Shown piece by piece: positions 5,863 through 32,473 of a stretch of DNA of 35,146 bases (positions within the stretch are counted from its first letter, which is position 1; the number at the start of each line of letters is the position of its first letter). Made by a program: the position numbers and the translations under genes. The DNA is from a virus. Lineage: Duplodnaviria; Heunggongvirae; Uroviricota; Caudoviricetes. Location: IMG/VR virus record IMGVR_UViG_2909309443_000004. One strand, written 5' to 3'. Under the pieces are notes generated by a model. It had not been told where the DNA came from. It made no database searches and saw only the letters and a program-made list of their open reading frames with translations.

Positions 5863-5898
5863 ATATTTATTATCTGAAATAAATATCAGGCAATAGCT

Positions 5899-6184: not shown

Positions 6185-6199
6185 GTACCTCAAGGGTAA
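6185..6199. promoter_or_regulatory. Operator-like palindrome GTACCTCAAGGGTAA
   Basis: One-mismatch member of TTACC-N5-GGTAA family, 80 bp upstream of the 6280 ATG. Confidence 0.4.
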
Positions 6200-6279
6200 T
6201 AAAAAACCAAATATGGTTGATCTTTTTTTTGTGTCAGCACAAAATAACCGTAATCCCAATACTAATAACAGGGCTTACC

Positions 6280-6480: not shown

Positions 6481-6495
6481 TAGCGGAGATTAATC

Positions 6496-7311
6496 ATGAG
6501 CAGACATGCAACAGATTGGGCCTGGGAGACAGATCCAGGTAGCTCGTCATTAAAGCTCATACTGCTCTCGATGGCTGACAGAGCCGATGAATATAACCTC
6601 TGCTACCCCAGCATAGAACGCCTCGTTAAAGACACTTGCCTGAATAAAAAAACCGTGCAGGCCGGACTTATATCGCTCATGAAAATGGGGCTTATTTCAG
6701 ATACCGGGGAGAGAAAGGGAGCGACAAAAAGAGTGCGGGTTTTCTCTCTTAATATAACCAAAAACGGGAACATTAAAGGCAACCGAGAGGGGGGCAATGA
6801 ACCCGAAAACGGTAATGTTACCGAAAACGGGAATATACCCAAAAACGGGATGTTGAATGATCCCAAAAACGGGATGTTGAATGATCCCAAAAACGGGATC
6901 CAGAACCAGTCATATAACCAGTCATTTAACCAAGAGAGGGAGAGCAGGACAAAAAACGGGGATTCTGTGCATCATGACCCCGGCGCAAACAACGCCGTGA
7001 TGAATAACTTTGTTCCTCCTGGTGGGCCAGGGCAATTAGGCAAATTTGTCATGCATGAACAATGGCAGCCATCAGATGACTTTCTTCGGAAAAGCTCATT
7101 GCAGGGGATCTACCTGGACAGTCTGCCAACGGCACAGGAACTTGCAGAGTTCAGAATTTACTGGATGGCTGAGGGTAAGGCATACCATCAGGCACAGTGG
7201 GAGCAGAAGCTGGCAAGGCGGCTGCAGATTAGCAGACAGAAGCAATCAACATTACCTGATAACAACGTTCCGCACTGGAACAGCCCTGAAGCATGGGAGG
7301 ATTTCTTGTGA
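6496..7311 (+). CDS. Replication initiator, lambda O-like N-terminal HTH domain with DnaT-like C-terminal region
   Basis: 271-aa ORF; N-terminus (..LKLILLSMADRADEYNLCYPSIERLVKDTCLNKKTVQAGLISLMKMGLI..) typical of phage replisome organiser HTH; contains iteron array in linker. Confidence 0.7.
   Translation: MSRHATDWAWETDPGSSSLKLILLSMADRADEYNLCYPSIERLVKDTCLNKKTVQAGLISLMKMGLISDTGERKGATKRVRVFSLNITKNGNIKGNREGGNEPENGNVTENGNIPKNGMLNDPKNGMLNDPKNGIQNQSYNQSFNQERESRTKNGDSVHHDPGANNAVMNNFVPPGGPGQLGKFVMHEQWQPSDDFLRKSSLQGIYLDSLPTAQELAEFRIYWMAEGKAYHQAQWEQKLARRLQISRQKQSTLPDNNVPHWNSPEAWEDFL
6757..6903. repeat. Iteron array (putative phage origin of replication) inside initiator gene: ~6 copies of CCAAAAACGGGA-like unit, including an exact 24-bp tandem duplication
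   Basis: Direct repeats accaaaaacgggaacatt / cccgaaaacggtaatgtt / accgaaaacgggaatata / cccaaaaacgggatgttgaatgat (x2) / cccaaaaacgggatcc; encode KNGN/ENGN peptide repeats. Confidence 0.65.
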
Positions 7312-8093
7312 ACAACGTTTTTACCGCGATACAAAACCGTGACGGAGAAGCCCTTTCTCGCATGTCAGGTTATGAGCATCAGTACACCAACAATGACAAC
7401 GTAGTGAACATGTCAGCAGAGAGGCTTGTTGATGCCCTTTTCAAACAGTTGAAACAACTGTTTCCGGCGGCAGTGGTAACCAACCTGAAGACGCCAGAGC
7501 AGGAAGTTGCTGCAAAACAGCAGTGGATTGCTGCGTTTGCCGAAGGGGGGATCCGAACCCGTGAACAGGTTTCTGCTGGTATGCGCCACGCCCGCGCCAG
7601 TGAATCTCCGTTCTGGCCGTCGCCAGGGCAATTTATCAAGTGGTGTAAAGACAGCAAGATGGTTCTTGGCGTCACCATTGACGATGTGATGGCGGAGTTT
7701 CACCGGTACAGCAAGGAAAAAAGTTTATATCCTGGTGGTCCCGAAAGATTCCCGTGGCGGCATCCGGTTATGTACTGGGTCGTATGTGATACACGCCGTG
7801 CAATGTATCAGCGCCAGCTTAGCGAGATTGAGGTTGAGAAACACGCGCGCAGGCTGCTCGATGATTGGGCGAAAAAGGTGGCTTCCGGACAGCAGATACC
7901 CGATCCGGTGATCAGCATACAGGCAAAGCCAGAGCCCATGAGTACGCCTCCGGACACAGGGAGAGACGTTTACCATCCACCAGGGCGAAGTTTCGGGTGC
8001 ATGCCTAACGCCGCCACCCTTGGGGGAATAACACCGGCGCAGTGGCTGATGGAGGAATACAGGCGGGGAAAGGCGGCAGGATTTATCAAGTAA
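7293..8093 (+). CDS. Replication protein P-like helicase loader (lambda P family)
   Basis: Segment FPAAVVTNLKTPEQEVAAKQQWIAAFAEGGIRTREQVSAGMRHARASESPFWPSPGQFIKWCKD closely parallels lambda P (..QWVLAFRENGITTMEQVNAGMRVARRQNRPFLPSPGQFVAWCRE..); alternative GTG start at 7308 overlapping O-like stop. Confidence 0.85.
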   Translation: MGGFLVNNVFTAIQNRDGEALSRMSGYEHQYTNNDNVVNMSAERLVDALFKQLKQLFPAAVVTNLKTPEQEVAAKQQWIAAFAEGGIRTREQVSAGMRHARASESPFWPSPGQFIKWCKDSKMVLGVTIDDVMAEFHRYSKEKSLYPGGPERFPWRHPVMYWVVCDTRRAMYQRQLSEIEVEKHARRLLDDWAKKVASGQQIPDPVISIQAKPEPMSTPPDTGRDVYHPPGRSFGCMPNAATLGGITPAQWLMEEYRRGKAAGFIK

Positions 8094-8130
8094 TACCAGC
8101 GCGATAGCGCATTTTTTTACGTCTATATGA

Positions 8131-8207
8131 TTACCTGGAAGGTAATAAAATGTTCTAATCTCTATTGATTTCATGTCTTATGTGGTTTTTAATTACCTAA
8201 GGGGTAA
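8131..8207. promoter_or_regulatory. Operator pair TTACCTGGAAGGTAA (8131-8145) and TTACCTAAGGGGTAA (8193-8207) upstream of 8211 ORF
   Basis: Two perfect TTACC-N5-GGTAA palindromes in 117-bp intergenic region after P-like gene. Confidence 0.5.
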
Positions 8208-8210
8208 ATC

Positions 8211-8523
8211 ATGAGAAAACAGATACAGGCTCTTGGTCGACTCAAAACAGGCCAGATGAACAAAACAGAATCTGCGTATTGCCAGCACCTTGAGCTGCGT
8301 AAACGTGCAGGGGAAATCGCCTGGTATCGATTCACCATCAGTGCCTGCAACACCAGAAGTTCAGGCAGCACCACAGGAGCAGGATGCCGCCGTTGTTGAT
8401 GCCCGCGACGAAGAAACTCGTCGCCGTCGCGCTGCTGCTGGTCGTAGTTCTACGCTGCTTACCGGTTCTCAGGGCGACACATCAACCGCTAATACCAGCG
8501 GTAAAACGCTGCTTGGTCAGTAA
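8211..8523 (+). pseudogene. Probable gene remnant / deletion scar: DUF1064-like N-terminal fragment (8211-~8330) joined out of frame to a Gly/Ser/Arg-rich C-terminal ORF (8290-8523)
   Basis: 8211 ORF begins MRKQIQALGRLKTGQMNKTESAYCQHLELRKRAGEIAWYRF (resembles N-terminus of phage DUF1064 proteins) then loses protein-like sequence; second frame ends ...RRRRAAAGRSSTLLTGSQGDTSTANTSGKTLLGQ; no intact product. Confidence 0.3.
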
Positions 8524-8537
8524 CCGGAGTCATTGAA

Positions 8538-10217
8538 ATGGCGGAAACAACTAAAGAGCGATTGAACAAACAGTTCGCACAACTTGAAAGCGAGCGTCAG
8601 TCGTTCGAGCCGCACTGGCGCGAGTTGAGTGATTACATCAACCCGCGTGGTTCCCGCTTTCTGACTTCTGAGGTCAACCGTAACGATCGACGCAATACAC
8701 GCATTATTGATTCGACCGGGACTATGGCGGCGCGCACTCTCGCCAGCGGCATGATGTCAGGCATCACAAGCCCCGCGCGTCCGTGGTTTCGCCTGGCTAC
8801 GCCAGATCCTGAAATGATGGATTATGGCCCTGTTAAGTTGTGGCTTGAGGCGGTGCAGAACCGCATGAACGATATGTTCAATAAGTCGAATCTCTATCAG
8901 TCGCTGCCGCAGTTATACGGAAGCCTCGGCACATACAGCACTGGCGCAATGGCGGTGCTGGAGGATGACGAGGACATCATTCGTACAATGCCATTCCCGA
9001 TAGGAAGTTACTACCTGGCTAACTCACCTCGTGGCAGTGTGGACACCTGTTTTCGCAAGTTCTCTATGACTGTTCGTCAGCTTGTTCAGGAGTTCGGGCT
9101 AAATAACGTCAGCGAATCCGTAAAAAGCATGTGGGAAAGCGGCACCTACGAGAAGTGGATTGACGTGATGCATTCGGTTTACCCGAACATTGACCGCGAT
9201 ACATCGAAGCTGGATAGCAAGAACAAGCCATTCAAATCGGTTTATTACGAGGTTGGTGGCGATAACGACAAGTTGTTGCGTGAGTCCGGATTTGATGAGT
9301 TTCCAATTATGGCTCCGCGCTGGGAAGTTAACGGCGAAGATGTTTATGGATCATCATGCCCGGGTATGCTGGCGCTTGGAGCTGTTAAGGCATTGCAGCT
9401 TCTCCAGAAGCGCAAGTCGCAGTTGATTGATAAAGCCACCAATCCGCCGATGGTTGCTCCGACTTCCCTCAAGAATCAGCGTGCCTCCCTTCTTCCTGGC
9501 GACATCACGTATATCGATCAGATTACTGGTCAGGATGGTTTCAGGCCTGCTTATCTGGTTAACCCCAGTACAGCAGATTTGGTGGCAGACATTCAGGACA
9601 CTCGTCAAATCATTAACAGCGCCTACTTTGTCGATCTGTTCATGATGTTGCAGAACATCAATACCCGCTCGATGCCTGTTGAAGCGGTGATCGAAATGAA
9701 AGAAGAAAAACTTCTGATGTTGGGGCCGGTTCTGGAGCGTCTGAACGACGAATGTCTTAACCCTCTCATTGACCGCGCTTTCTCGATGATGGTGCGTAAA
9801 AACATGCTGCCGCCACCGCCTGACGCGATGGAAGGTATGCCCCTGAAGGTCGAATACATTTCCGTCATGGCTCAGGCGCAGAAGTCTATCGGCCTGTCCA
9901 GTCTGGCGTCCACGGTTAACTTCATTGGTCAACTTGCGCAAGCGAAACCAGAAGCTCTCGACAAACTCAACGTTGATCAGGCGATCGATGCATTCGCTGA
10001 TATGTCCGGAGTGTCTCCAACCGTCATTGTTCCGCAGGAACAGGTTGAGCAGGCTCGCCAGCAACGGGCACAGCAACAACAGCAGCAACAAATGATGGCG
10101 ATGGGGATGGCGGCGGCACAGGGTGCCAAGACGCTAAGCGAAGCTAAAACTTCGGATCCGAGTGTTTTGTCAGCTATGGCGAATGCAGTTAGTGGTCAGG
10201 GTGGGCAATCACAATGA
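8538..10217 (+). CDS. Portal (head-to-tail connector) protein, T7 gp8-like
   Basis: 559-aa ORF at head of structural module; Gln-rich/Met-Ala-rich C-terminus (QQRAQQQQQQQMMAMGMAAAQGA...) as in T7 gp8; followed by scaffold and capsid genes. Confidence 0.8.
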   Translation: MAETTKERLNKQFAQLESERQSFEPHWRELSDYINPRGSRFLTSEVNRNDRRNTRIIDSTGTMAARTLASGMMSGITSPARPWFRLATPDPEMMDYGPVKLWLEAVQNRMNDMFNKSNLYQSLPQLYGSLGTYSTGAMAVLEDDEDIIRTMPFPIGSYYLANSPRGSVDTCFRKFSMTVRQLVQEFGLNNVSESVKSMWESGTYEKWIDVMHSVYPNIDRDTSKLDSKNKPFKSVYYEVGGDNDKLLRESGFDEFPIMAPRWEVNGEDVYGSSCPGMLALGAVKALQLLQKRKSQLIDKATNPPMVAPTSLKNQRASLLPGDITYIDQITGQDGFRPAYLVNPSTADLVADIQDTRQIINSAYFVDLFMMLQNINTRSMPVEAVIEMKEEKLLMLGPVLERLNDECLNPLIDRAFSMMVRKNMLPPPPDAMEGMPLKVEYISVMAQAQKSIGLSSLASTVNFIGQLAQAKPEALDKLNVDQAIDAFADMSGVSPTVIVPQEQVEQARQQRAQQQQQQQMMAMGMAAAQGAKTLSEAKTSDPSVLSAMANAVSGQGGQSQ

Positions 10218-10510
10218 CAGATTACGAAGATGATCAACTGAAAGAAGAAAACGCCCGTAAGCAACGTGACATGGCACAGCGTGAAATTGATGACATTCGC
10301 TTTGTCATGAGCAGTGAACAGGGGCGTCGCGTTGTCTGGTCGGTGCTGGAGAAAGGCCGTGTGTTTTCCGCTATCTCACCGATGGACGCTATGGCAATGG
10401 CATTTAATGAGGGGCAACGCAATCTGGCGCTGGAACTGTTTCAGCGCGTTATGGCGCATTGCCCTGAACAGTATTTGAAGATGGCCAAAGAGGCCAGTGA
10501 ACAGGAGTGA
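10214..10510 (+). CDS. Hypothetical head-assembly protein
   Basis: 98-aa ORF, ATG overlaps portal stop (ATGA); between portal and scaffold. Confidence 0.5.
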   Translation: MTDYEDDQLKEENARKQRDMAQREIDDIRFVMSSEQGRRVVWSVLEKGRVFSAISPMDAMAMAFNEGQRNLALELFQRVMAHCPEQYLKMAKEASEQE

Positions 10511-10512
10511 TC

Positions 10513-11208
10513 ATGAATTTATTTGAGCGTTTGCTGTATCGCCGTCTTTGCAATGAGCAACCAGTCGATGGTGGAGCAGCTCCGGCTGCGTCAGAACCGT
10601 CAGCGCCTGCAGGTGATAACCCTGCTCCAGTTGGTGATCCATCACAATCGGAAGGTGATAAGCCACAACCTGTTGCTGATGGCGATAAACCTGCTGATGA
10701 CAAAAAGCCTGAAAGCGATAAGCAGGGTGAAAAAAAGGACGGCGATAAACCGGATGGTGCGCCGGAGAAGTACGAGTTTCAGGCTGCCGAAGGCGTAGAG
10801 CTGGATACAGAAGCGTTAAAGGAATTCGAGCCGGTGGCGCGAGAACTAAACCTGACCAACGAGCAAGCGCAAAAGCTGGTTGATGCTTATCCGAAGATTC
10901 TGGCAGGTGTTCAGCAGCGCCAGGCAGAAGCCTGGCAGAAAACAACCGAGCAGTGGGCTGCGGATGTAAAAGCTGACAAAGAAATCGGTGGCGACAAGTT
11001 GATTTCTAACCTTAGCTCCGCACAGCGTGCGCTTGACCAGTTCGGGACACCTGAACTCAAAGAATATCTGAACACCACCGGGCTGGGTAATCACCCTGAT
11101 CTGGTCAAAACGTTCGTGAAAATCGGAAAGGCGATGTCTGAAGATGGCATGGTCACCGGTGGTAATGAAGGCCAGCGTAGTGCGGCCGAAGTGCTCTATG
11201 GCAAATAA
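10513..11208 (+). CDS. Scaffolding protein (acidic, low-complexity N-terminus)
   Basis: Track ORF 10507..11208; ATG 10513 follows AGGAG; Asp/Lys/Pro-rich repeats (GDKPQPVADGDKPADDKKPESDKQGEKKDGDKPDG) then helical C-terminus; position between portal and capsid. Confidence 0.65.
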   Translation: MNLFERLLYRRLCNEQPVDGGAAPAASEPSAPAGDNPAPVGDPSQSEGDKPQPVADGDKPADDKKPESDKQGEKKDGDKPDGAPEKYEFQAAEGVELDTEALKEFEPVARELNLTNEQAQKLVDAYPKILAGVQQRQAEAWQKTTEQWAADVKADKEIGGDKLISNLSSAQRALDQFGTPELKEYLNTTGLGNHPDLVKTFVKIGKAMSEDGMVTGGNEGQRSAAEVLYGK

Positions 11209-12085
11209 GAGAGGAGATAACAATGGCTGTTAAAGGCTTAACTGCGCTAACGCTGGCTGACTGGGGTAAGCGCGTCGATCCAAATGGGAAAGTCGATAAG
11301 ATTATCGAGCTTCTCAATCAAACTAACCCAATTCTTCAGGATATGCCTTTTGTTGAAGGAAACCTTCCTACCGGACACCGAACCACCATTCGTTCTGGTT
11401 TACCTTCTGCTACCTGGCGTTTGCTGAACTATGGCGTACAGCCAAGCAAATCAACCACAGTGCAGGTCACCGATTCCATTGGCATGCTGGAAACCTATGC
11501 TGAAGTCGATAAGTCTCTGGCTGATCTGAACGGTAATACTGCCGAATTCCGTCTGTCTGAAGACCGAGCATTTATTGAAGCGATGAATCAGGCGATGGCG
11601 CAGACACTGTTTTACGGTGATTCCAGCGTTAACCCTCAGCAGTTTATGGGACTGTCCTCCCGCTATTCCAGCCTGTCTGCGGGTAATGCTCAGAACATCA
11701 TTGATGCTGGTGGCACGGGTACAGATAACACTTCAATCTGGTTAGTGGTGTGGGGCGAAAACACCGTGCATGGCATCTTCCCGAAAGGACAGAAGGCTGG
11801 CATTCAGATGGAAGATAAAGGCCAGGTGACACTGGAAGATGCTAATGGCGGCAAGTACGAAGGTTATCGTACCCATTATAAGTGGGACAACGGGCTGACA
11901 TTACGTGACTGGCGCTATGTAGTTCGTATCGCAAACATCGATGTCAGCAATCTTTCAGAACCTTCCTCTGCCGCAAATATTGCGAAGTTGATGGTTAAAG
12001 GTAAGCGTAAACTGACCGCCGTATGTAGCCATCAGACGAGAATTGGTAACTTAGACGCCCATCTGATATAGACGGACATCTAAGT

Positions 12086-12511
12086 ATGGAATTACAGGAC
12101 TGGCGAAAAGAACCTCGTAAAAACTATTCGAATGAATTCAAACTTCGTATGGTGGAACTGGCATCACAACCTGGAGCTTGTGTTGCACAGATTGCACGTG
12201 AAAATGGCGTCAATGATAATGTTATTTTCAAATGGCTCAGGCTCTGGCAGAACGAAGGGCGTGTTTCGCGGCGTCTTCCGGTAACGACCTCTTCTGACAC
12301 TGGCGTTGAATTATTACCTGTAGAAATAACGCCGGATGAGCAGAAAGAACCTGTGGCGGCCATTGCGCCGTCTTTATCCACTTCCACTCAGACCAGAGTC
12401 AGTGCCAGTTCCTGCAAGGTGGAATTCCGTCACGGTAACATGACGCTGGAAAATCCATCGCCAGAGCTGCTCACAGTGTTGATCCGTGAACTGACCGGGA
12501 GGGGAAGATGA
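12086..12511 (+). CDS. IS66-family accessory protein TnpA (orfA)
   Basis: 141-aa ORF, HTH-like N-terminus (SNEFKLRMVELASQPGACVAQIARENGVNDNVIFKWLRLW); first ORF of IS66-type element. Confidence 0.8.
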   Translation: MELQDWRKEPRKNYSNEFKLRMVELASQPGACVAQIARENGVNDNVIFKWLRLWQNEGRVSRRLPVTTSSDTGVELLPVEITPDEQKEPVAAIAPSLSTSTQTRVSASSCKVEFRHGNMTLENPSPELLTVLIRELTGRGR

Positions 12512-12858
12512 TCTCACTCCCATCAGGTACCCGTATCTGGCTCGTTGCCGGCGTTACCGATATGCGTAAATCCTTCAACGGACTGGGAGAACAGGTACAA
12601 CATGTGCTGAATGATAATCCCTTCTCCGGTCACCTGTTTATCTTCCGTGGCCGACGGGGTGACACCGTCAAAATTCTTTGGGCTGATGCTGATGGTCTGT
12701 GCCTGTTCACCAAACGCCTGGAGGAAGGCCAGTTTATCTGGCCTGCGGTACGTGACGGCAAGGTATCCATTACCCGCTCGCAACTGGCAATGCTCCTCGA
12801 TAAGCTGGACTGGCGTCAGCCAAAAACATCCAGCCGTAACTCACTGACAATGTTGTAA
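12508..12858 (+). CDS. IS66-family accessory protein TnpB (orfB)
   Basis: 116-aa ORF MISLPSGTRIWLVAGVTDMRKSFNGL..., overlapping orfA stop (ATGA), typical IS66 Orf2. Confidence 0.8.
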   Translation: MISLPSGTRIWLVAGVTDMRKSFNGLGEQVQHVLNDNPFSGHLFIFRGRRGDTVKILWADADGLCLFTKRLEEGQFIWPAVRDGKVSITRSQLAMLLDKLDWRQPKTSSRNSLTML

Positions 12859-12888
12859 AAAACTCCTGACCGCATTATAAAAACGGTC

Positions 12889-14502
12889 ATGAGTCAGAAA
12901 TACCTCATTCGCATCGCAGAGCTGGAAAGGTTGCTCTCTGAGCAGGCTGAAGCCCTCCGTCAGAAAGACCAGCAACTGAGTCTGGTTGAAGAGACGGAAG
13001 CCTTCCTGCGCTCTGCACTGACACGTGCCGAAGAAAAGATCGAAGAAGATGAACGGGAAATAGAACATCTGCGGGCTCAGATAGAAAAACTGCGCCGGAT
13101 GCTGTTCGGTACCCGTTCTGAAAAACTGCGTCGTGAAGTTGAACTGGCTGAGGCTCTGCTGAAACAACGTGAACAGGACAGCGATCGTTACAGTGGGCGG
13201 GAAGACGATCCTCAGGTTCCCCGCCAGTTGCGACAGTCGCGCCATCGTCGTCCGTTACCGGCACACCTTCCCCGTGAAATACACCGCCTGGAGCCAGAAG
13301 AAAGCTGTTGCCCGGAGTGTGGCGGTGAGCTGGATTATCTGGGGGAAGTCAGCGCTGAACAGCTGGAACTGGTGAGCAGTGCCCTGAAAGTGATCCGCAC
13401 AGAACGGGTAAAAAAAGCCTGTACAAAATGTGACTGTATTGTTGAAGCACCGGCGCCGTCCCGCCCGATAGAGCGTGGTATCGCGGGCCCCGGATTACTT
13501 GCCCGCGTGTTAACGGGAAAATACTGCGAACATCTGCCACTGTATCGTCAGAGTGAAATCTTTGCCCGCCAGGGTGTCGAACTGAGCCGGGCCTTACTCT
13601 CCAACTGGGTTGACGCGTGCTGCCAGTTAATGACACCGGTGAATGATGCCCTGTACCGTTATGTAATGAACACCCGCAAGATTCACACTGATGACACACC
13701 GGTAAAGGTACTGGCACCGGGTCAGAAAAAGGCGAAAACAGGGCGTATCTGGACGTATGTCCGGGATGATCGCAATGTGGGTTCGTCATCTCCTCCAGCG
13801 GTCTGGTTCGCGTACTCGCCGAACCGGCAGGGGAAACACCCGGAGCAACACCTCCGCCCCTTCCGGGGTATCCTGCAGGCGGATGCGTTCACAGGTTACG
13901 ACAGGTTGTTCAGTGCAGAACGTGAAGGTGGTGCACTGACAGAAGTTGCGTGCTGGGCCCATGCCCGGCGAAAAATCCACGATGTATACATCAGCAGCAA
14001 AAGTGCGACGGCAGAAGAAGCACTGAAGCGAATCAGTGAACTGTACGCCATCGAGGATGAAATACGGGGATTACCGGAGTCAGAGCGTCTTGCCGTCAGG
14101 CAGCAGCGAAGCAAAGTGTTACTGACGTCGCTGCATGAATGGATGGTGGAGAAGAATGGTACGCTGTCGAAAAAATCCAGACTGGGCGAAGCGTTCAGCT
14201 ATGTACTGAATCAGTGGGATGCCCTCTGTTATTACAGTGATGACGGTCTGGCGGAGGCGGATAATAATGCTGCGGAAAGAGCGCTTCGTGCAGTCTGTCT
14301 CGGAAAGAAAAACTTTATGTTCTTTGGCAGCGATCACGGCGGCGAGCGTGGAGCACTGTTGTACGGGCTGATCGGCACCTGCCGTCTGAACGGTATCGAT
14401 CCGGAAGCGTATCTGCGCCATATCCTGAGCGTACTGCCGGAATGGCCTTCCAACCGAGTTGATGAACTCCTGCCATGGAACGTAGTACTCACCAATAAAT
14501 AA
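12889..14502 (+). CDS. IS66-family transposase (orfC)
   Basis: 537-aa ORF with N-terminal coiled coil/leucine zipper, CxxC zinc motifs (CCPECGGEL...CTKCDC) and DDE-type core. Confidence 0.85.
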   Translation: MSQKYLIRIAELERLLSEQAEALRQKDQQLSLVEETEAFLRSALTRAEEKIEEDEREIEHLRAQIEKLRRMLFGTRSEKLRREVELAEALLKQREQDSDRYSGREDDPQVPRQLRQSRHRRPLPAHLPREIHRLEPEESCCPECGGELDYLGEVSAEQLELVSSALKVIRTERVKKACTKCDCIVEAPAPSRPIERGIAGPGLLARVLTGKYCEHLPLYRQSEIFARQGVELSRALLSNWVDACCQLMTPVNDALYRYVMNTRKIHTDDTPVKVLAPGQKKAKTGRIWTYVRDDRNVGSSSPPAVWFAYSPNRQGKHPEQHLRPFRGILQADAFTGYDRLFSAEREGGALTEVACWAHARRKIHDVYISSKSATAEEALKRISELYAIEDEIRGLPESERLAVRQQRSKVLLTSLHEWMVEKNGTLSKKSRLGEAFSYVLNQWDALCYYSDDGLAEADNNAAERALRAVCLGKKNFMFFGSDHGGERGALLYGLIGTCRLNGIDPEAYLRHILSVLPEWPSNRVDELLPWNVVLTNK

Positions 14503-14799
14503 GCGTCAATACGGTGCTCCGTTGACGCTTACGTTAAAGCACTGCATCGCATTCCAAACCGTGGCATGGGTCGCCCGGTGTTCTACATGAACCGCACTGT
14601 AGGCCAGGCTCTTGATCTGCAATCTCTGGAGAAAACATCTCTGGCTATCAGCGTAAAAGAGACTGAAGGCGAGTGGTGGACTTCATTCCGTGGTGTACCA
14701 ATCCGTGAAACTGATGCGCTTCTGGAAACAGAAGCCCGCGTGGTGTAACGCCTGTTATTAACCTGTGGGTCGTAACAGACCCACTAATGGAGAAAGAAG

Positions 14800-15957: not shown

Positions 15958-16562
15958 TGGCCTCTGTAGTAGAGATCTGTAATCGCGCGCTGTCCAATAT
16001 TGGCAACAGCCGCAGCATTAACAGCCTGACGGAAGCCAGCAAGGAAGCGGGGGAATGTTCGCTGCACTTTGAGGCCTGCCGTGATGCTGTGCTTTCTGAT
16101 TTTGACTGGAACTTTGCTACCAAACGCGTGGCGCTTGCAGATACGAGCAATCCACCGCCTGACTGGGAATATGCGTACCAGTACCCGTCAGATTGTCTGC
16201 GCATTACTGAAATTATGCTTCCTGGTGTACGCAATCCAACAGCAGCAATGCGCGTTCAGTACGAAGTTGGTGCAGACACCAACGGAACAGGAAAGTTGAT
16301 CTACACAGACCAGCCTCAGGCATGGCTCAAGTATGTCTCTCGCGTTACAGATGTGAACATGTTTGATGCCATTTTTATGGAGGCGTTGGCCTGGCGTCTT
16401 GCGGCAGCTATTAACATGGCGCTGACTGGGAATGCAGACCTCGGTACGTTTGCCCTCAATATGTACAATCGCGTGATTCTTAGTGCTGGCTCGCATAGCC
16501 AGAATGAATCACAGGAACCACAGCCACCGGTTGATGAGTTTACCATTGCGAGGTTGTCCTGA
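15957..16562 (+). CDS. Tail tubular protein A / adaptor (T7 gp11-like)
   Basis: ~201 aa; ATG overlaps upstream stop; N-terminal ...EICNRALSNIGNSRSINSLTEAS... resembles gp11 N-terminus pattern; immediately precedes gp12-like gene. Confidence 0.5.
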   Translation: MASVVEICNRALSNIGNSRSINSLTEASKEAGECSLHFEACRDAVLSDFDWNFATKRVALADTSNPPPDWEYAYQYPSDCLRITEIMLPGVRNPTAAMRVQYEVGADTNGTGKLIYTDQPQAWLKYVSRVTDVNMFDAIFMEALAWRLAAAINMALTGNADLGTFALNMYNRVILSAGSHSQNESQEPQPPVDEFTIARLS

Positions 16563-18733
16563 TGGCTATCAGTTGGATCCAGCCCAGCTTTGCCGGTGGT
16601 GAGATTGGACCGTCGTTGTACGGACGTATCGACATGGCGAAGTACCAGGTGGCATTGCGCAAGTGCGATAACTTTATCGTGCGGCAGTATGGCGGCGTTG
16701 AGAATCGACCTGGTACGCGTTTTGTCGGTGCCGCCAAATACCCAAATCGGAAATGCCGCCTGATACCGTTCCAGTTCTCGACGGTTCAGACTTATGCTCT
16801 GGAGTTCGGACACCAGTACATGCGCGTTATCAAAGATGGTGCGTTGGTGCTGAACAGCAGCAATGTTATTTATGAAATTGCCACGCCATATACTGAAGCC
16901 GATCTGTTCCGAATTAAATTCACGCAAAGCGCAGACGTGCTTACGCTGGTTCATCCGGCATACCCGCCGAAAGAGTTGCGTCGCTATGCGCATGACAACT
17001 GGCAACTGGTTGATGTGGTAACGAAGAACGGACCATTTGAAGATATCAATATTGACGAGTCAGTGACGGTTTATGCCAGCGCCAGCACCGGGACAATTAC
17101 GTTAACGGCAAGCGCCTCTATTTTTGGCGCGGAGCAGGTAGGCAAATTGTTCTATCTGGAACAGCCTGCAGTGGATTCAGTGCCGGTATGGGAAACCAGT
17201 AAGAGTACGTCGATTGGCGATATTCGCCGTGCAGACAGTAACTACTATCGCGCCGTTACAGCAGGCAAAACAGGTACTTTGCGCCCTTCGCATACAGAAG
17301 GCACATCATGGGATGGCTGGGGCGGATCCGGTGATGATGATACTGGCATTGAGTGGGAATATCTGCACAGTGGTTTTGGCATTGCCCGTATCACTGCTGC
17401 AAATGGAACTACTGCAACTGCCGAGGTGATTTCCTATATCCCTTCGCAGGTAGTTGGCGAGGATAATGCCAGCTATAAATGGGCTAAATATGCCTGGAAC
17501 AGTGTTAATGGTTATCCTGGCACTGTTGTTTATTATCAACAACGTCTTTACTTCGCCGCATCGACTGCGTTCCCTCAGACTATCTGGGCTAGCCGTACCG
17601 GGGATTATAAGGATTTTGGCAAAAGCAATCCTACGCAGGATGACGACAGAATTATCTACACCTATGCCGGGCGTCAGGTTAATGAGATCCGCCACCTGAT
17701 TGATGTCGGTTCGCTGGTGGCACTGACTTCCGGAGGTGAGTACGTCATCACCGGCGACCAGAACAAAGTGTTAACCCCATCATCATTTGCATTCAGCTCT
17801 CAGGGATCAAATGGCTCGAGCAATGTCCCACCAATTGCCGTGGCGAATATTGCTCTGTTCGTCCAGGAGAAAGGCAGTGTTGTCCGTGATCTGGCCTACT
17901 CATTCGATGTTGACGGCTATCAGGGGAACGACCTGACCATCCTTGCCAATCATCTTTTTCAGAAGCACAGCATTGTTGACTGGTGCTTCTCTATTGTCCC
18001 TTACTCCAGCGCCTTCTGCATTCGTGATGACGGTAAATTACTGGTGATGACCTATTTGCGTGATCAGCAGGTTTTTGCATGGGCACCACAATCCAGTACC
18101 GGAAAATATGAAAGCACATGCAGTATCAGCGAAGGAAATGAAGATGCGGTGTATTTCGTTGTTAACCGAACCGTTAACGGGCAAACAGTGAGATACATCG
18201 AGCGACTGTCCAGCCGTTTATTTACCAGCGATGAAGATGCTTTCTTTGTTGATTCTGGCCTTAGCTATGATGGAAGAAATACGTCTGACAGAACGATGAC
18301 CATCACTGGTGGTTCTGGCGAATGGGATTACCGCGCGGAATATACAATCAGTATTTCTGGTGGTGCGTACTTCACCAGTAGTGATGTCGGTGCGCAACTA
18401 CAGTTCCCTTATACCGGCGCTGATTTATCTACCGGTAACGCGCTGGATATATTTGGTGACACTGCTCAGTTTGGCGCTCTTGATTCGCTGACGACGGTGA
18501 ATAACGCGCAACGCGAGGCTTACGGTTATCAGGTTCAGGCTGCCAACTATAAAGCAGAAGCCAGTTCAGCCCGTAAACAGGGGAATGTGGGAGCAGCAAC
18601 AACATTGCTCACTGCGCCTCTGAAGGCATACGGTGCGTACCAGATGTTTGGTGGGACGTGGAGTCCGTTTACTCAAAGCACCCCTGCGCCAATCGGGGCA
18701 GCAGCAGGAACCAGATTACCCGGAGGATTATAA
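16562..18733 (+). CDS. Tail tubular protein B / nozzle (T7 gp12-like)
   Basis: 723-aa ORF, start overlaps previous stop; size, position and beta-rich sequence consistent with podovirus gp12. Confidence 0.6.
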   Translation: MAISWIQPSFAGGEIGPSLYGRIDMAKYQVALRKCDNFIVRQYGGVENRPGTRFVGAAKYPNRKCRLIPFQFSTVQTYALEFGHQYMRVIKDGALVLNSSNVIYEIATPYTEADLFRIKFTQSADVLTLVHPAYPPKELRRYAHDNWQLVDVVTKNGPFEDINIDESVTVYASASTGTITLTASASIFGAEQVGKLFYLEQPAVDSVPVWETSKSTSIGDIRRADSNYYRAVTAGKTGTLRPSHTEGTSWDGWGGSGDDDTGIEWEYLHSGFGIARITAANGTTATAEVISYIPSQVVGEDNASYKWAKYAWNSVNGYPGTVVYYQQRLYFAASTAFPQTIWASRTGDYKDFGKSNPTQDDDRIIYTYAGRQVNEIRHLIDVGSLVALTSGGEYVITGDQNKVLTPSSFAFSSQGSNGSSNVPPIAVANIALFVQEKGSVVRDLAYSFDVDGYQGNDLTILANHLFQKHSIVDWCFSIVPYSSAFCIRDDGKLLVMTYLRDQQVFAWAPQSSTGKYESTCSISEGNEDAVYFVVNRTVNGQTVRYIERLSSRLFTSDEDAFFVDSGLSYDGRNTSDRTMTITGGSGEWDYRAEYTISISGGAYFTSSDVGAQLQFPYTGADLSTGNALDIFGDTAQFGALDSLTTVNNAQREAYGYQVQAANYKAEASSARKQGNVGAATTLLTAPLKAYGAYQMFGGTWSPFTQSTPAPIGAAAGTRLPGGL

Positions 18734-27029: not shown

Positions 27030-27749
27030 TCAGAAGAACCCTGCCTTGTCGTTGATGTACTCCGCGTGGGTCTGGATATCACGCAGGCATTTGCTCACAC
27101 CGACGATGTAGCAGAACATGGTGGTCAGTTCCGCCGCCGCGCCCGATACGTCATGCCCGTCTTCCTGTAACTGGTTCAGCAAATTCATCAGCAGTGAGTT
27201 CTCCGTCAGGCCGAGAACACCAGACGGTGAATGAATCAGGCTACGGTAGCCGGGCTTCAGTGGGGCGCTGTAGGTTTTGTTCTCTATCTTCATTGCCTGC
27301 ATCACTGCTGATGCTGTGGCGTTGGCTACCTGGTCGGCAACCATCTTTATGCGTTCTTCTTGCGGGAGCGAGTTTTTAATGTAACTTCCGGTGCGGCGGA
27401 TCTGAGGAAGAACCTCACCTGTAACCCATTTACGAAAGCGGTATGGGATAGTGCCTGGTGTCACCGCATCGCGGCAGCGGAGGATCAGTGTGTAGAGGCC
27501 TGACTCGTTGATAATATTGGTTTCGCCTTGACGGCCTAAGTTAAATTTAGCCCTTTCATCATCATCAAGAGATTTTATTGACATAGTGGGGTTTGTCAGT
27601 TGAAGAGCTTTAATAACGTCTTTGGCAACAAACCAAGGATTAATCGCAAATCCAACTCTCCTCAGAGTTATAACGCTCAAACGCTTTACACATACTTTGT
27701 GTTGGTGCTGGAGGGCGTTCAAGGGCAGCCATGACTTGCTCCCAAACAT
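27030..27749 (-). CDS. Bro-N-like antirepressor-type protein with C-terminal domain paralogous to 28868..29125 product
   Basis: Track ORF 27030..27758; Bro-N-like segment GFAINPWFVAKDVIKAL...SGLYTLILRCRDAVTPGTIPYRFRKWVTGEVLPQIRRTG; C-terminal ~90 aa share clear similarity with ORF 28868..29143. Confidence 0.6.
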   Translation of the reverse strand: MFGSKSWLPLNALQHQHKVCVKRLSVITLRRVGFAINPWFVAKDVIKALQLTNPTMSIKSLDDDERAKFNLGRQGETNIINESGLYTLILRCRDAVTPGTIPYRFRKWVTGEVLPQIRRTGSYIKNSLPQEERIKMVADQVANATASAVMQAMKIENKTYSAPLKPGYRSLIHSPSGVLGLTENSLLMNLLNQLQEDGHDVSGAAAELTTMFCYIVGVSKCLRDIQTHAEYINDKAGFF

Positions 27750-27924
27750 CCTCTTCAACGATCAAGCGGCGATGTTCATTAATAACTGTTTCAGCTCTAA
27801 AAGTCGTAGACTCCATTACAAATTGAGATACGGACACTTTAGAAATAACAGCAGCTTCTTCGATACGGCGCTTCGCAGCTTCGGGCAGACGAAACTCGAA
27901 CCGCTCCTTTCTTACTGCGTTCAT
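27640..27924 (-). CDS. DUF1778-like ribbon-helix-helix protein (TacA-antitoxin-like / Arc-like regulator)
   Basis: Track ORF 27640..27948 (GTG); ATG 27924 lies 5 nt after AGGAG; sequence MNAVRKERFEFRLPEAAKRRIEEAAVISKVSVSQFVMESTTFRAETVINEHRRLIVEEDVWEQVMAALERPPAP fits DUF1778 RHH pattern; no GNAT toxin partner present. Confidence 0.6.
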   Translation of the reverse strand: MNAVRKERFEFRLPEAAKRRIEEAAVISKVSVSQFVMESTTFRAETVINEHRRLIVEEDVWEQVMAALERPPAPTQSMCKAFERYNSEESWICD

Positions 27925-27988
27925 AACAACTCCTGAGCTAATGCTCACAGTGGTTTATACCACATAACGATATGCACGGTACGGGAAT

Positions 27989-28116: not shown

Positions 28117-28845
28117 ATGGAAGTTTTCTGGATAGTTGTTGGTGTGGTTGCGGTGATTATTTACGTTATCAACCAGAACAAGACTAAGATCTCTGATCGT
28201 ACGGTCGTTAATCATAACAAAACGATAAAGACCGAAGATGGGGAGATAACGATTAATCGTACACAGGTGATAGAACACACCTCTACTCAGTTTCAAAAAA
28301 CTGGAGGTAATGCGCCTAATATTTCCGCACCTCCTGCTTATGATAGTGCGGTAATCCAGACATATTATAAACAGCAGGAGTTAGCAAAAGAGAGGCAACT
28401 GATTCAGCCAAAGCCGTTTACAACTGAGATTCCACCTGGAGTGTCAACGCGTCCGGCATATCATGGAAGATTCCCTGGTGATGACATATCGTCTCAGTCA
28501 TCTAAAAAAGCACCTCAGGCAATATCAGAGCCAGCAAGAATACCTTCTGTATCGCCGCAAAAAGAAGAATCAGCTAACAGAGTTTCAAGTGGTAGCAAGC
28601 AGTGCTTGCGATGCAGAATAAACCTTCCATATGAAAAATTCAGGAAATCGTCAAAAAATCCAGATGGATTGACTAAATGGTGTGCAAGGTGTCTCGATGG
28701 CCCAAAGAATACACGCCATATGAAGTGGTGCCCAATTTGTAATGTCCGCAGAAAACGAACCAGCTTTTACCCTAATAATCAAAATGCGGACGGCTTAATG
28801 GCATGGTGCAAAACGTGCTGGGATGAGCACAAAGCGAAACGATAG
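28117..28845 (+). CDS. Membrane-anchored protein with duplicated C-terminal zinc-ribbon motifs, function unknown
   Basis: 242-aa ORF; N-terminal TM helix (FWIVVGVVAVIIYVI), long low-complexity linker, then two repeats CLRCRINLPYEKFRKSSKNPDGLTKWCARC and CPICNVRRKRTSFYPNNQNADGLMAWCKTC. Confidence 0.6.
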   Translation: MEVFWIVVGVVAVIIYVINQNKTKISDRTVVNHNKTIKTEDGEITINRTQVIEHTSTQFQKTGGNAPNISAPPAYDSAVIQTYYKQQELAKERQLIQPKPFTTEIPPGVSTRPAYHGRFPGDDISSQSSKKAPQAISEPARIPSVSPQKEESANRVSSGSKQCLRCRINLPYEKFRKSSKNPDGLTKWCARCLDGPKNTRHMKWCPICNVRRKRTSFYPNNQNADGLMAWCKTCWDEHKAKR

Positions 28846-29216: not shown

Positions 29217-29320
29217 TATCTATTCATATTCACAGCCTTTCTATCCATATGTGGTTTTTCAGGTAATAGAATAACCAGATATGCGGCGCAACGGGTGCTG
29301 CGACTATCTGGAGATTTAAC

Positions 29321-31921
29321 ATGACGGTCTCAACCGAAGTTGACCACAACGAATACACCGGTAACGGCGTTACGACATCATTTCCGTATACCTTCCGTAT
29401 TTTCAAAAAAACCGACCTGGTTGTTCAGGTGTCTGATCTGAACGGGAACGTAACAGAATTGGTTCTGGATACCGGTTATAAGGTAACTGGAGCGGGCACT
29501 TATAGTGGCGGTGAAGTGGTTCTCCCGTCGCCGCTTGCTGCTGGCTGGCGAATTACGATAGAGCGTGTGCTTGATGTGGTGCAGGAGACTGATCTTCGCA
29601 ATCAGGAAAAATTTTTCCCCGAAGTTCATGAAGATGCATTTGACTACCTGACGATGCTGATCCAGCGATGTTTTGGGTGGTTCAGACGTGCATTGATGAA
29701 ACCCTCGTTGCTTGCAAAATATTACGATGCAAAGCAAAACAGAATATCTAACCTTGCTGATCCATCACTTGAGCAGGACGCTGTAAATAATCGCTCAATG
29801 CGTAATTATGTCGATGCTGCAATCGCCGGGGTTGTTGGTGGTTTTGGTTGGTTTATTCAGTATGGTTCTGGAGCAGTATACCGAACGTTCCAGGATAAGA
29901 TGCGGGATGAAGTAAATATTCGTGATTTTGGAGCAGGAGATTCAGGTGAAGTTACAGATGCTATTTTGAAGGCTGTTGCAGCTACTAATGGCACCATTAT
30001 TATCCCGGATGGAAATTATGTTTCTACTCCAACAGTAACGCAGACTCCGAACGTTATGAAATTGCTTTCACGAGCAGAGTTTAGAGGTTCTTTGACCATC
30101 AATCTTCCTGTTGGAACTGTTAACCTATCAGAAAAGACGCTAATCAGATCACAAAATGTTCATAAACTTTCTATTTCTGGTATTACGTATTCAACTACGC
30201 TAACTGGCTTAGTGGGTGTATCTGGTATCCCCAAATCATACCTAGTTACGCTCTCTCTGGCTGATGCTTCAAACGTTTCTGTAGGCGACGTCGTGATGAT
30301 TCGTCACGATATAACGGGGACAGGAGGATATCACATCCATTGTGGCGGATGGGTTGTGACTGCCGTGTCTGGCAAAAATGTTACCGTAAAAAACACCTGC
30401 CACCTGTCTGAATTACCAACGTCAACGATTACAGGCGGAACAGTAGTCATACTAAAAAGTATTCTGAGATATGCCGGATGTGATGGGATTGTGGCTGCAG
30501 GTGCTGGGTGCATTAAGACAATAAACGGTGTCGCAATTGTTGGTGATTATGACCTTGTGGCCGGCACTGGAACTATTGGTGCGCATGGTTTCTCCCTCAC
30601 TACTCCAGACATTACTGTTGCCATCCCAGACCCATCCAACGTGGTTTTTGATGCGTCAGGATGTATAGCAATTGGGCCTGATCTGGCGATCGTTGGGTTC
30701 GGAGAACAGGGGGTCGTGGCTTCAGAAAGATCTGGTGTGGTTTCAAACTTTATATCTTCATGCTCTAACCGCAAGCGCGGTGTATATTCTGAAGGCGCTC
30801 ATATACGCGGTAAATTTATGCTTTGCTCAGGGAATGGTGAGGATGGGATTATTGCTGATATTGGTGGCGCAATACAGGCTAACGGATCAGTTTGCTCTGG
30901 CAATGGGTTGAATGGGTTCTGGTCTTTTAATCATAGTTTTTTGGGGGCACCAGGGGGGATTGCGTGCGGTAACTATACCAATGGTGGTGAATCACGCGGA
31001 CCAGGTGCATTAAATCTGCAAAATGGGAAGAGCTATTTAAACAGGCTAATTGGTGTAACCGCTTCAAATAGCGGTGCAGTTATTTTCACTAACTCAACTG
31101 CCACACAAAATGGCACGGATGGTCTGGTTGCTGTTTACGATGGCTTAATATCTGCCGCCAATGCCAATTCAACGAGCAACGGTCGCTATGGGGTTAACGT
31201 AACTCACGCAAAAATTGTGCTTAAAGGCTCTGGAGGAGTGACTGGTAACACAACGGGAGATTACATCGATAACGGCGAGGGCACAATAATCAAGCCAGAT
31301 GGTACTATGCTGCCGAGGAATGCTGGCCCGCAAAGCATCCTTTCTATTCGTAACGCCAATCTTTCCGGTGCTGATGTCACGGCATCATCAATAGGCGATC
31401 TCACCGTCTCGCAAAGAAACACATCCTCGGGTGCATTAACCCCCCTGTATGTATTCAAATCTGACGGAACCCAGCATCCAGTCAATGACGCCACGCAGAA
31501 CCTTGGCAGGGCAAGCAATCGCTACAATGTTGGTTTCTTCGCTGGCGGAACACAGTCAACTTCAGATGCCACACTTAAAGACCCTATCCGGGAGTTCAAT
31601 CAGGCCGAACTCAATGCAGCAATGCGCATCTCGAAAATGTTTGGATTCTGGACGTGGCTTGATGATGACAGTAAGCGTTTGCATGCAGGGACTACGGTTC
31701 AAGCAGTGTTAGCTGTTCTGGAAGAGGAAGGTCTAGACTGGCGGAGCTATGGATTTATCTGTTTTGATGAGTGGGATGATGAATATACCCCGGTAACCAT
31801 TGAGGTAGATGGCGAAGTCGTTGAAACTGGCGAACTGCAATTAGTACGTGAGTCTGGTTCTGTATGGCAATTACGCGATCAGGAATTTGACAGATTCGTG
31901 ATGCGTGGACTTTCCGAATGA
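29321..31921 (+). CDS. Tailspike protein: T7 gp17-like N-terminal anchor, central beta-helix-like receptor-binding/depolymerase region, C-terminal intramolecular chaperone (peptidase S74-like)
   Basis: 866-aa ORF; N-terminus MTVSTEVDHNEYTGNGVTTSFPYTFRIFKKTDLVVQV typical of podovirus fibre/spike anchor; Gly/Ser/Asn-rich repetitive middle; C-terminal S-D-A-T-L-K autoproteolysis-like motif followed by conserved chaperone block. Confidence 0.8.
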   Translation: MTVSTEVDHNEYTGNGVTTSFPYTFRIFKKTDLVVQVSDLNGNVTELVLDTGYKVTGAGTYSGGEVVLPSPLAAGWRITIERVLDVVQETDLRNQEKFFPEVHEDAFDYLTMLIQRCFGWFRRALMKPSLLAKYYDAKQNRISNLADPSLEQDAVNNRSMRNYVDAAIAGVVGGFGWFIQYGSGAVYRTFQDKMRDEVNIRDFGAGDSGEVTDAILKAVAATNGTIIIPDGNYVSTPTVTQTPNVMKLLSRAEFRGSLTINLPVGTVNLSEKTLIRSQNVHKLSISGITYSTTLTGLVGVSGIPKSYLVTLSLADASNVSVGDVVMIRHDITGTGGYHIHCGGWVVTAVSGKNVTVKNTCHLSELPTSTITGGTVVILKSILRYAGCDGIVAAGAGCIKTINGVAIVGDYDLVAGTGTIGAHGFSLTTPDITVAIPDPSNVVFDASGCIAIGPDLAIVGFGEQGVVASERSGVVSNFISSCSNRKRGVYSEGAHIRGKFMLCSGNGEDGIIADIGGAIQANGSVCSGNGLNGFWSFNHSFLGAPGGIACGNYTNGGESRGPGALNLQNGKSYLNRLIGVTASNSGAVIFTNSTATQNGTDGLVAVYDGLISAANANSTSNGRYGVNVTHAKIVLKGSGGVTGNTTGDYIDNGEGTIIKPDGTMLPRNAGPQSILSIRNANLSGADVTASSIGDLTVSQRNTSSGALTPLYVFKSDGTQHPVNDATQNLGRASNRYNVGFFAGGTQSTSDATLKDPIREFNQAELNAAMRISKMFGFWTWLDDDSKRLHAGTTVQAVLAVLEEEGLDWRSYGFICFDEWDDEYTPVTIEVDGEVVETGELQLVRESGSVWQLRDQEFDRFVMRGLSE

Positions 31922-32059
31922 TTGAGCTTTATCGAGGATAAATTTGCATCTTAAATTCATGAAATAGATAAAATTAGGTTGAGTAACAATTATCCGTAAA
32001 TGGTTTATTGTGTATGATGAACTCACCAACTAAGGGGGGTTCTTTATGCACATTAAACG

Positions 32060-32473
32060 GTGGTCACTATGTCGCACACGTTAACCACGGGAACGCTGAA
32101 TCAGGGGCTTAGCCTGAGCGCGCTAATGTCTGTGGTCGCTGGCGTGCCGCCTGAAGTGGCTTTAGGGGCGCTCGCTGGTGCGGTAATTTTTGTTACCTCT
32201 GCTGTCGAGTATCCGATCCGCCGCCGGGTTCTCCTGTCGATGCTCAGCTTTCTTTGTGGCCTTCTCTTTTACAAACCAGCAGCATCAATTCTTATCGGCA
32301 TAGCCAGCCTGATACCTACCATCACGCAGGATTCTTTCGAGAAAGGGATTGTTTTCTCTGCTGGCGCATTCGTGTCAGCAATCGTCGCAGTACGAATTGG
32401 CATCTGGCTCTATCACCGTTCCGATAATCCACGCGAGTTAATTCCGGGGAGAAAAGACGATGGTAACGCATGA
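32060..32473 (+). CDS. Holin-like membrane protein
   Basis: 137-aa ORF (GTG 32060 or ATG 32069) with multiple hydrophobic segments, first gene of lysis cassette upstream of endolysin. Confidence 0.55.
   Translation: MVTMSHTLTTGTLNQGLSLSALMSVVAGVPPEVALGALAGAVIFVTSAVEYPIRRRVLLSMLSFLCGLLFYKPAASILIGIASLIPTITQDSFEKGIVFSAGAFVSAIVAVRIGIWLYHRSDNPRELIPGRKDDGNA

Follow-up and report, generated by a model that had tools for sequence, protein, structure and literature searches.

The window analyzed in this study is a stretch of 35,146 nucleotides (nt) from a tailed virus of the class Caudoviricetes (IMG/VR record IMGVR_UViG_2909309443_000004), and the gene of interest is the plus-strand coding sequence (CDS) at positions 29321-31921 with a product of 866 amino acids (aa). 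It very probably encodes the single tailspike of a phiV10/epsilon15-like prophage located next to yfgI; the protein is composed of three exchangeable modules, its proposed target is the K15 capsule of Escherichia coli, and the allele found here is truncated. This description is based on the observed gene and domain boundaries, folds, homologies and mosaic distribution, together with the nonsense mutation and the prophage defects found in the window. An earlier note on the same DNA had described a tailspike with a conserved anchor, a divergent receptor-binding core and an autoproteolytic chaperone domain. This three-domain architecture was borne out, since the anchor, the beta-helix and the S74 chaperone all passed the tests applied; the premature stop, the defective state of the prophage and the occurrence of the receptor-binding module in unrelated phages had gone unseen.

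Tailspikes built from modules, with exchangeable receptor-binding domains and chaperones that cleave themselves off, belong to textbook phage biology, and swappable spike modules of E. coli are already well described, so the architecture itself is not new. Added here are the truncated chaperone, the defective prophage and the prediction of a K15 depolymerase for a module that is spread across at least five phage backbones.

Domain architecture and mosaic structure of the tailspike

The CDS starts with ATG, and its N-terminus (MTVSTEV...) agrees with the start of phiV10 gp25. A Shine-Dalgarno-like GGAG, read from the sequence, is located at 29310-29313 (+), 7 nt 5' of the start codon. In the list of open reading frames (ORFs), the CDS ends at a TGA codon, which is premature. 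A promoter and terminator scan around the gene found no plus-strand promoter-like site upstream of it, and hits were no more numerous than in shuffled sequences. The best PHROG matches of the ORF are tail spike and tail fiber families, with E-values down to 2e-137. Seven complete genomes contain the gene with 100% identity; in strain FORC_031, the identical gene is labeled 'tail fiber domain-containing protein' in RefSeq.

The structure of the protein was modeled with AlphaFold2 (AF2) on the basis of 44 relatives, resulting in a mean predicted local distance difference test score (pLDDT) of 81.7. The model consists of a beta-sandwich (aa 9-82), helices (aa 100-171), a very confident beta-helix (aa ~195-730) and an alpha/beta domain (aa 750-866).

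Judged by its sequence, the part from aa 1 to ~180 is a virion anchor of the phiV10/epsilon15 type (genus Uetakevirus), with a beta-sandwich followed by a helical neck. A conserved podovirus particle-binding domain had been expected in the N-terminal ~150 aa; a Uetakevirus-type anchor is indeed found there, but it extends over ~180 aa. The anchor domain D1 (29321-29605, +; aa 1-95), whose strands lie between aa 9 and 82 and which would dock the spike on the tail, was modeled with a pLDDT of 83-92 over aa 11-80. The subsequent neck (29618-29833, +; aa 100-171) is probably a trimeric coiled coil. Its three helices (aa 100-126, 128-137 and 151-171) have a low model confidence, which is to be expected when a coiled coil is modeled as a monomer.

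Residues 1-165 are 67% identical to phiV10 gp25, and the first ~540-615 nt of the gene show 92-97% DNA identity to other phiV10-like phages. The anchor is of the type of this genus and lies at the syntenic position, with flanking genes collinear with phiV10. A sequence search of the Protein Data Bank (PDB) showed that aa 1-182 share homology with the Carin-1 podovirus tailspike Dpo31 (E = 4.6e-29) across its domains D1 and D2, and Foldseek matched the anchor to Dpo31 (8ck1_B) with 46% identity. In Dpo31, D1 was located at the virion base by cryo-electron microscopy, and D2 is built of three-helix coiled-coil regions (PMC13317679). The Pfam family Phage_T7_tail (T7 gp17 N-terminal domain) was considered as well and rejected, since it reached 12.5-18.5 bits at a cut-off of 25.2 and matched only aa 135-161.

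The central part was modeled as a right-handed parallel beta-helix (29903-31510, +; aa ~195-730), which is the receptor-binding and putative depolymerase domain. A beta-helix had been proposed for the middle ~550 aa, and AF2 confidently models one of ~540 aa with phage depolymerases and tailspikes among its structural neighbors; at the level of the model, the fold of the central domain is established. The described richness in Gly, Ser, Asn and Thr was also found, as these residues make up 40.5% of aa 195-735, compared to 26% of the N-terminal and 20% of the C-terminal part. In contrast, the plain GxxG motif is not enriched. It was observed 15 times, compared to 11.0 +/- 2.9 times in shuffled sequences, 11% of which reach 15. 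What had been seen as GxxG is probably a periodic N-G-x-x-G motif located at aa 505, 528, 551, 597 and 620, with a spacing of 23 residues or multiples thereof. The pattern N[GYT]xxG was matched six times, with 1.5 matches expected, and six were reached in 0.3% of the shuffles. According to the periodicity analysis, the run of 23-residue coils with N-G-x-x-G spans 30683-31300 (+; aa 455-660).

The most conserved stretch of the module, determined over 24 relatives down to 32% identity, is located at 30704-30991 (+; aa 462-557) and is a candidate active or binding site. It contains a ladder of conserved, mostly charged residues, namely E462, R484, K485, R486, Y489, R496, K498, E507, D508, D513, W534 and E557. 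Since E462, K485 and D508 are spaced by 23 residues, they are stacked on successive coils. We infer that this ladder forms the active site.

The C-terminus consists of a Peptidase_S74 intramolecular chaperone domain (31562-31918, +; aa 748-866), which measures 119 aa in this copy, compared to 130 aa in the intact allele. An endosialidase-type chaperone of ~115 aa with an S-D-x-x-x-K motif at 31562-31579 had been claimed for this region, and both parts of the claim held. The motif S748-D-A-T-L-K753 is found exactly at 31562-31579 (+), is the sole SD...K in the protein, and aligns to positions 1-6 of the Pfam S74 model, with S748 and K753 as the predicted Ser-Lys catalytic dyad. The match to PF13884 at aa 748-805 covers positions 1-58 of the 58 positions of the model with 33 bits (cut-off 22; E = 7.6e-8), and the isolated C-terminus reached 37 bits. 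The pLDDT of the domain is 75-93. Foldseek identified the L-shaped fiber of phage T5 as the best match (4uw8, E = 5e-10), besides 3gw6 (E = 3e-5) and 3gud with a template modeling (TM) score of 0.68-0.73, normalized to the target. Structure prediction and comparison thus recovered both folds, the beta-helix and the S74-like chaperone, on which the earlier description depended.

On the sequence level, aa 704-864 match the T5 L-shaped tail fiber with its intramolecular chaperone (4uw8; E = 3.4e-22). The phmmer alignment begins at aa 704 and therefore includes a pre-cleavage stalk segment (31430-31561, +; aa 704-747), whose homologous counterpart in T5 pb1 lies ahead of the cleavage site. In this alignment, S748 is opposite the Ala of 'ADARLK' in the 4uw8 chain of T5 pb1, which we take to be a Ser-to-Ala mutant of the cleavage site. 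The S-x4-K spacing is equal in endoNF (S911/K916) and MyRF (S587/K592) (PMC8326128). Self-cleavage is predicted to occur between T747 and S748, and the calculated products would have a size of 78.1 kDa and 13.8 kDa (15.1 kDa for the intact allele).

In the mechanism proposed here, the beta-sandwich and the coiled-coil neck of the anchor (aa 1-~180) would fix the trimer to the tail, and the beta-helix (aa ~195-730) would bind and probably cleave a surface polysaccharide. In intact relatives, the chaperone may trimerize via its C-terminal helix and nucleate folding of the spike. After folding, it would cut itself off between T747 and S748 by means of the S748/K753 dyad, leaving a spike subunit of ~78 kDa and a fragment of ~15 kDa.

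The similarity switches from Uetakevirus anchors to a common receptor-binding module at a junction located at 29858-30056 (+; aa ~180-245). Relatives of the Uetakevirus type align from aa 1 to aa 203-245, and in relatives with other anchors, the alignment begins at aa 180-193. On the DNA level, the similarity to HEMP4 ends at nt 536 of the gene and that to 536P12 begins at nt 624. The module (aa ~185-866) was found behind four other kinds of N-terminus, and only 10 phage records hold this domain. In the Sashavirus 536P12, it shows 95% aa identity behind a PF18668 N-terminus, and the DNA is 99.0% identical over nt 737-2597; no papers on this phage were found in the literature. In the myoviruses 536P1 (Phapecoctavirus) and VEcB/alia (Justusliebigvirus), the module is 88% identical on the aa level and follows a short myovirus adaptor. 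In P22-like prophage spikes of E. coli, it is 59-69% identical and is located behind the P22 head-binding domain (PF09008). All of these relatives keep the full C-terminus. Other proteins (P0063, P0068, P0076, P0080 and P0097) have only aa ~175-735 in common with the tailspike and carry no S74 domain. Since these relatives share just this part, the chaperone appears to be a separate cassette.

A second tailspike of the P22 type was observed in FORC_031. It has a length of 833 aa with a head-binding N-terminus and is located in another prophage remnant near sbcB (L008:33103-35604). Its beta-helix and chaperone are 59% identical to those of the tailspike studied here and nearly identical over aa 480-540; the conserved stretch aa 462-557 is near-identical in this paralogue.

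The K15 capsule as candidate glycan target

Whether the central domain recognizes an O-antigen or a capsule had been left open by the earlier note. The evidence obtained here favors the K15 capsule, and we consider it the likelier target compared to the O6 O-antigen, if by no wide measure of certainty. K15 is a polymer of N-acetylglucosamine (GlcNAc) and 3-deoxy-D-manno-octulosonic acid (Kdo) with the structure [4)-alpha-GlcNAc-(1->5)-alpha-Kdo-(2->], which is partly O-acetylated. It is found in enterotoxigenic E. coli (ETEC) O6:K15:H16 and in uropathogenic E. coli (UPEC) strains such as 536.

The K15-specific region 2 of strain 2016C04-116 was identified in 63 of 5,426 complete genomes, always with at least 99% identity. 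Compared to this low overall frequency, 15 of the 16 complete genomes that carry the module are K15-positive. This includes all genomes with an uninterrupted spike gene (8 out of 8) and most of those in which only the 3' half is matched (nt 1214-2601; 7 out of 8, with M9682-C1 as the case split by IS100). The 59%-identical P22-type variant was likewise found together with K15 in 15 of 16 genomes, which originate from human, pangolin, chicken and pig. Strain 536 is K15-positive as well and, going by the phage names, is presumably the isolation host of 536P12 and 536P1. FORC_031 and 536 have been described to carry the K15 capsule locus, the latter with the serotype O6:K15:H31 (PMC7387560). The sole carrier outside the ETEC clade is 2016C04-116, which has O16 wzx/wzy genes and a kps locus of K15 organization. 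Its prophage is apparently complete, with terminase, capsid and an intact spike of 877 aa. In addition, the acidic K15 polymer would fit the invariant Arg/Lys cluster beside acidic residues in aa 462-557, which is a weak indication.

The beta-helix of the tailspike is predicted to act as a K15 (GlcNAc-Kdo) capsule depolymerase. In its most far-reaching form, this prediction has, in our estimate, an even chance of being correct: the first family of K15 depolymerases defined by sequence would consist of the beta-helix module (aa ~185-747) and its relatives, a cassette moving among at least five unrelated backbones, in which R484, K485, R486, R496 and K498 together with E507, D508 and D513 would recognize and cleave the acidic Kdo-containing chain. 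Literature searches did not retrieve any experimental K15 depolymerase.

Several observations weigh against this assignment. The K15 association rests on few independent lineages, and O6 and K15 are confounded in most hosts. Because most carriers belong to one ETEC clade with a vertically inherited relic, the hypergeometric values for the association overstate its significance. Strain E70, which is the exception among the 3'-half matches, carries a related gene without K15, and the same holds for LR-27, as concluded by elimination. The kps region 2 of E70 is a different one, which indicates a capsule switch in this lineage, during which the dead tailspike gene was retained. Mutations in the K15 capsule alter the susceptibility to phage 536_P1 and confer resistance, which speaks for K15, but the study was unable to show K15 as the receptor, and most resistance mapped to the core of the lipopolysaccharide (LPS) (PMC11495123). 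The 536_P1 resistance mutants were also considered as a discriminator between the two receptors and set aside as not decisive, since several fibers are present on the phage and the affected LPS genes are those of the core. As a separate observation on E70, which is a sister ETEC strain, its region 2 includes a gene for a CDP-glycerol glycerophosphotransferase (L020:2834-20802).

The O6 O-antigen had been the first hypothesis for the target, derived from the host labels, and was weakened by the O16:K15 host. In this case, the module would be an O6-specific tailspike as typical of Uetakevirus and P22-like podoviruses, and the link to K15 would be a clonal by-product, which we regard as unlikely. 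FORC_031 has O6 wzx/wzy, the records of two other carriers give O6:H16, and the serotype of strain 536 is O6:K15:H31. Furthermore, the spikes of phiV10 and epsilon15 target O-antigens, with phiV10 listed as experimentally verified, and the closest prophage relative of the VEcB receptor-binding protein (RBP; 89.8%) was found in O6 strains (Pas et al., 2023; PMC10408124). The resistance to 536_P1, which maps mainly to LPS genes, could be read in the same way; however, the LPS mutations of that study affect core and heptose genes and are thus uninformative on the O-antigen.

An O6 gene cluster is not common to all hosts, since the intact allele (99% identical) is found in 2016C04-116 with its O16 gene cluster, K15 locus and apparently complete prophage. 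VEcB-like RBPs also occur in prophages of O11 and O153 strains besides O6 strains, and a K-antigen receptor was suggested for them (Pas et al., 2023; PMC10408124). The O6-dependent siphoviruses of CFT073 (O6:K2) (PMC12488582) are absent among the 10 phage records that hold the domain. The O6 flippase gene wzx of FORC_031 was observed to be annotated as frameshifted (L009:5990-7245). Due to this frameshift, the O6 antigen of the strain may be scarce or missing altogether, and the exposed glycan would then be the capsule.

The assignment to K15 provides a testable receptor for a module that was previously seen across several O serogroups without a receptor (Pas et al., 2023). If it is true, the module would represent an enzyme for typing and stripping K15 in ETEC and UPEC as well as a ready cassette for retargeting phages or tailocins, and it would offer a possible reason why K15 mutations change the susceptibility to the therapeutic phage 536_P1.

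Premature stop codon and decay of the prophage

The premature stop of the tailspike gene is a TGA at 31919-31921 (+) in place of AGA (Arg867), identified by DNA alignment with 2016C04-116 and by comparison with the C-termini of 12 relatives. The allele of 2016C04-116 is 99% identical, has AGA at the position of the TGA and encodes 877 aa. Compared to the 877-aa protein P0001, the protein of the window shows six substitutions, all of them within the anchor. The sequence across the stop reads ...GLSE-TGA-LSFIEDKFAS-TAA. The orphaned gene end (31922-31954, +) therefore consists of 10 in-frame codons (LSFIEDKFAS) followed by the original TAA and equals the end of P0001. This single-base change from AGA to TGA at codon 867 shortens the protein by its 11 C-terminal residues and removes about half of the terminal helix of the chaperone.

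All 12 close relatives examined extend 11-13 residues further, with the pattern R-[LI]-x-x-[LI]-E-x-[KR]-[LFI]. The trimer-forming helix of the window protein is incomplete, as it ends at aa 866, and of the five hydrophobic positions conserved in this helix, three (L868, I871 and F875) fall into the lost segment. For the MyRF domain, it was described that the C-terminal coiled coil drives trimerization and that single Leu/Ile substitutions there block cleavage (PMC8326128). Whether the loss of 11 residues cripples the chaperone-driven trimerization and makes the 866-aa allele a decaying relic is, in our judgment, evenly balanced. The more distant relative P0106, which ends at the same point as the 866-aa protein according to the BLAST table, speaks against this, since the truncation may be tolerated. 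In either case, the natural 866-aa allele is a ready-made test of the length of the terminal helix that the chaperone needs.

The surrounding 34 kb represent a phiV10-like (Uetakevirus) prophage, which spans from the integrase gene (window 1-1251) up to yfgI, a host gene at 34076. The integrase gene is immediately flanked by guaA in strain 2016C04-116. The window is part of an E. coli chromosome and corresponds to strain E8, and the host of the prophage, judged from this match, is an enterotoxigenic E. coli of the O6:K15 lineage. Across most of the first 25 kb, the window is ~98% identical to phiV10.

Three defects were identified in this prophage. At the deletion junction 8332-8333, ~7.2 kb of the phiV10 layout is gone, comprising the two terminase genes together with the late portion of the early region; in the BLAST comparison, window 1-8333 corresponds to phiV10 26927-35272 and window 8332-12000 to phiV10 3372-7040. 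The second defect is an IS66-family element inside the major capsid gene (12000-14533, +), which appears as a gap in the phiV10 alignment and contains ORFs of 141, 116 and 537 aa with the Pfam domains HTH_Tnp_1, TnpB_IS66 and DDE_Tnp_IS66. Among the complete E. coli genomes, the junction between capsid gene and IS66 element was found only in strain E8. The third defect is a deletion of 1.3 kb at 18412-18424 (phiV10 10925-12222), which fuses tail and internal-virion genes into a 723-aa ORF at 16562-18733. Pseudogenes are flagged by RefSeq at the site of this deletion in FORC_031. Due to the lost terminase, the disrupted capsid gene and the deleted tail genes, the prophage can neither package DNA nor build a capsid and forms no particles, and the tailspike gene has no present role in particle formation. 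Because of this and of the 11 lost residues, self-cleavage and virion function are doubtful for the allele of the window.

In M9682-C1, the same tailspike gene is split by an insertion of IS100 (IS21 family; L005:2829-7388). Seven further complete genomes, mostly ETEC isolates, match only nt 1214-2601, i.e., the 3' half, which is the same pattern as in M9682-C1. Both observations fit neutral decay. It is rather improbable that the gene is still fully functional for the host, for example as a spike provided to a phiV10-like phage that is co-resident or superinfecting, or as an enzyme released for capsule remodeling. The otherwise intact ORF, the restriction of the six substitutions to the anchor, the retained ribosome binding site, the 100% conservation in seven complete genomes and the end of P0106 at the same position could be explained in this way. 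However, the identity across the seven genomes can be attributed to clonal descent, and the lost residues are conserved in 12 of 12 close relatives examined. The split by IS100 and the seven 3'-half-only genomes argue against selection to keep the gene, and the loss of the terminase genes, the disrupted capsid gene and the tail-gene deletion likewise speak against retained function.

Two further observations concern the DNA upstream of the spike. A 242-aa ORF (28117-28845, +), which is absent from phiV10 and annotated as hypothetical in RefSeq, has an N-terminal hydrophobic segment, a Cys-rich C-terminus and a weak match, below the threshold, to the Stc1 zinc finger. At 27030-27948 (-), a gene with a Bro-N domain and a DUF1778 gene (names taken from the FORC_031 annotation) stand between the spike and the structural genes. 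This region matches phiV10 only in part and thus represents a further variable cargo region.

Comparison with known tailspikes, depolymerases and chaperones

The beta-helix can be compared with solved beta-helix capsule depolymerases, namely the Klebsiella K1 lyase (7w1c), S2-4 of K64-1 (9k4a), the coliphage K5 lyase (2x3h) and Acinetobacter tailspikes. The sequence identity to these proteins is only 8-13%, so that catalytic residues cannot be transferred from them, and the chemistry may be that of a hydrolase or of a lyase. Moreover, no family was found for the central domain in Pfam (isolated domain, E <= 10) or in NCBIfam. The structural neighbors of the beta-helix are a mixture of hydrolases, lyases, epimerases and non-enzymatic adhesins. 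This mixture and the missing match to a curated family count against the depolymerase prediction, and catalysis by the domain is putative. A non-enzymatic adhesin, i.e., a fiber that binds a glycan or another surface structure without cleaving it, would account for the missing match to a glycoside hydrolase or lyase family and for the RefSeq name, which refers to a tail fiber domain only, but it is very unlikely, because the stacked invariant residues E462, K485, D508, E507, D513, R484, R486 and K498, conserved down to 32% identity, are more typical of a catalytic groove, most phage neighbors in the fold searches are active depolymerases, and Dpo31, built on the same four-part plan, likewise acts as a depolymerase (PMC13317679).

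The closest known systems with respect to the genome position are gp25 of phiV10 and gp20 of epsilon15 (Uetakevirus), which likewise have the p24 homologue on one side and the holin genes on the other. The limits given for the phiV10 anchor (aa 1-205; Pas et al., PMC10408124) agree with the junction found here. After aa ~180, gp25 is unrelated to the tailspike and contains no S74 domain. The spike of phiV10 is followed by an O-acetyltransferase gene (oac), whereas this gene is absent here and no O-antigen-modifying gene was found between spike and holins (window 31921-32060).

Dpo31 of the marine phage Carin-1 (PDB 28lx, 8ck1) has the same four-part plan with a beta-sandwich (D1), a coiled coil (D2), the enzyme (D3) and D4, a C-terminal fragment of ~18 kDa, which is absent from the crystallized mature form (PMC13317679). 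In contrast to this common plan, the sequence match is limited to the N-terminal 182 aa, and host and substrate differ.

The chaperone is similar to the endosialidase-type chaperones of T5 pb1 (4uw8), endoNF (3gw6), the phi29/GA-1 neck appendage (3gud) and MyRF ICA, with which it has the S74 domain, the S-x4-K spacing and the fold in common. A terminal helix as trimer core is also a common feature of these chaperones. Compared to T5 pb1 and endoNF, the terminal helix of the tailspike is roughly halved by the nonsense mutation, and the upstream domain is a large beta-helix instead of a fiber tip or a sialidase beta-propeller.

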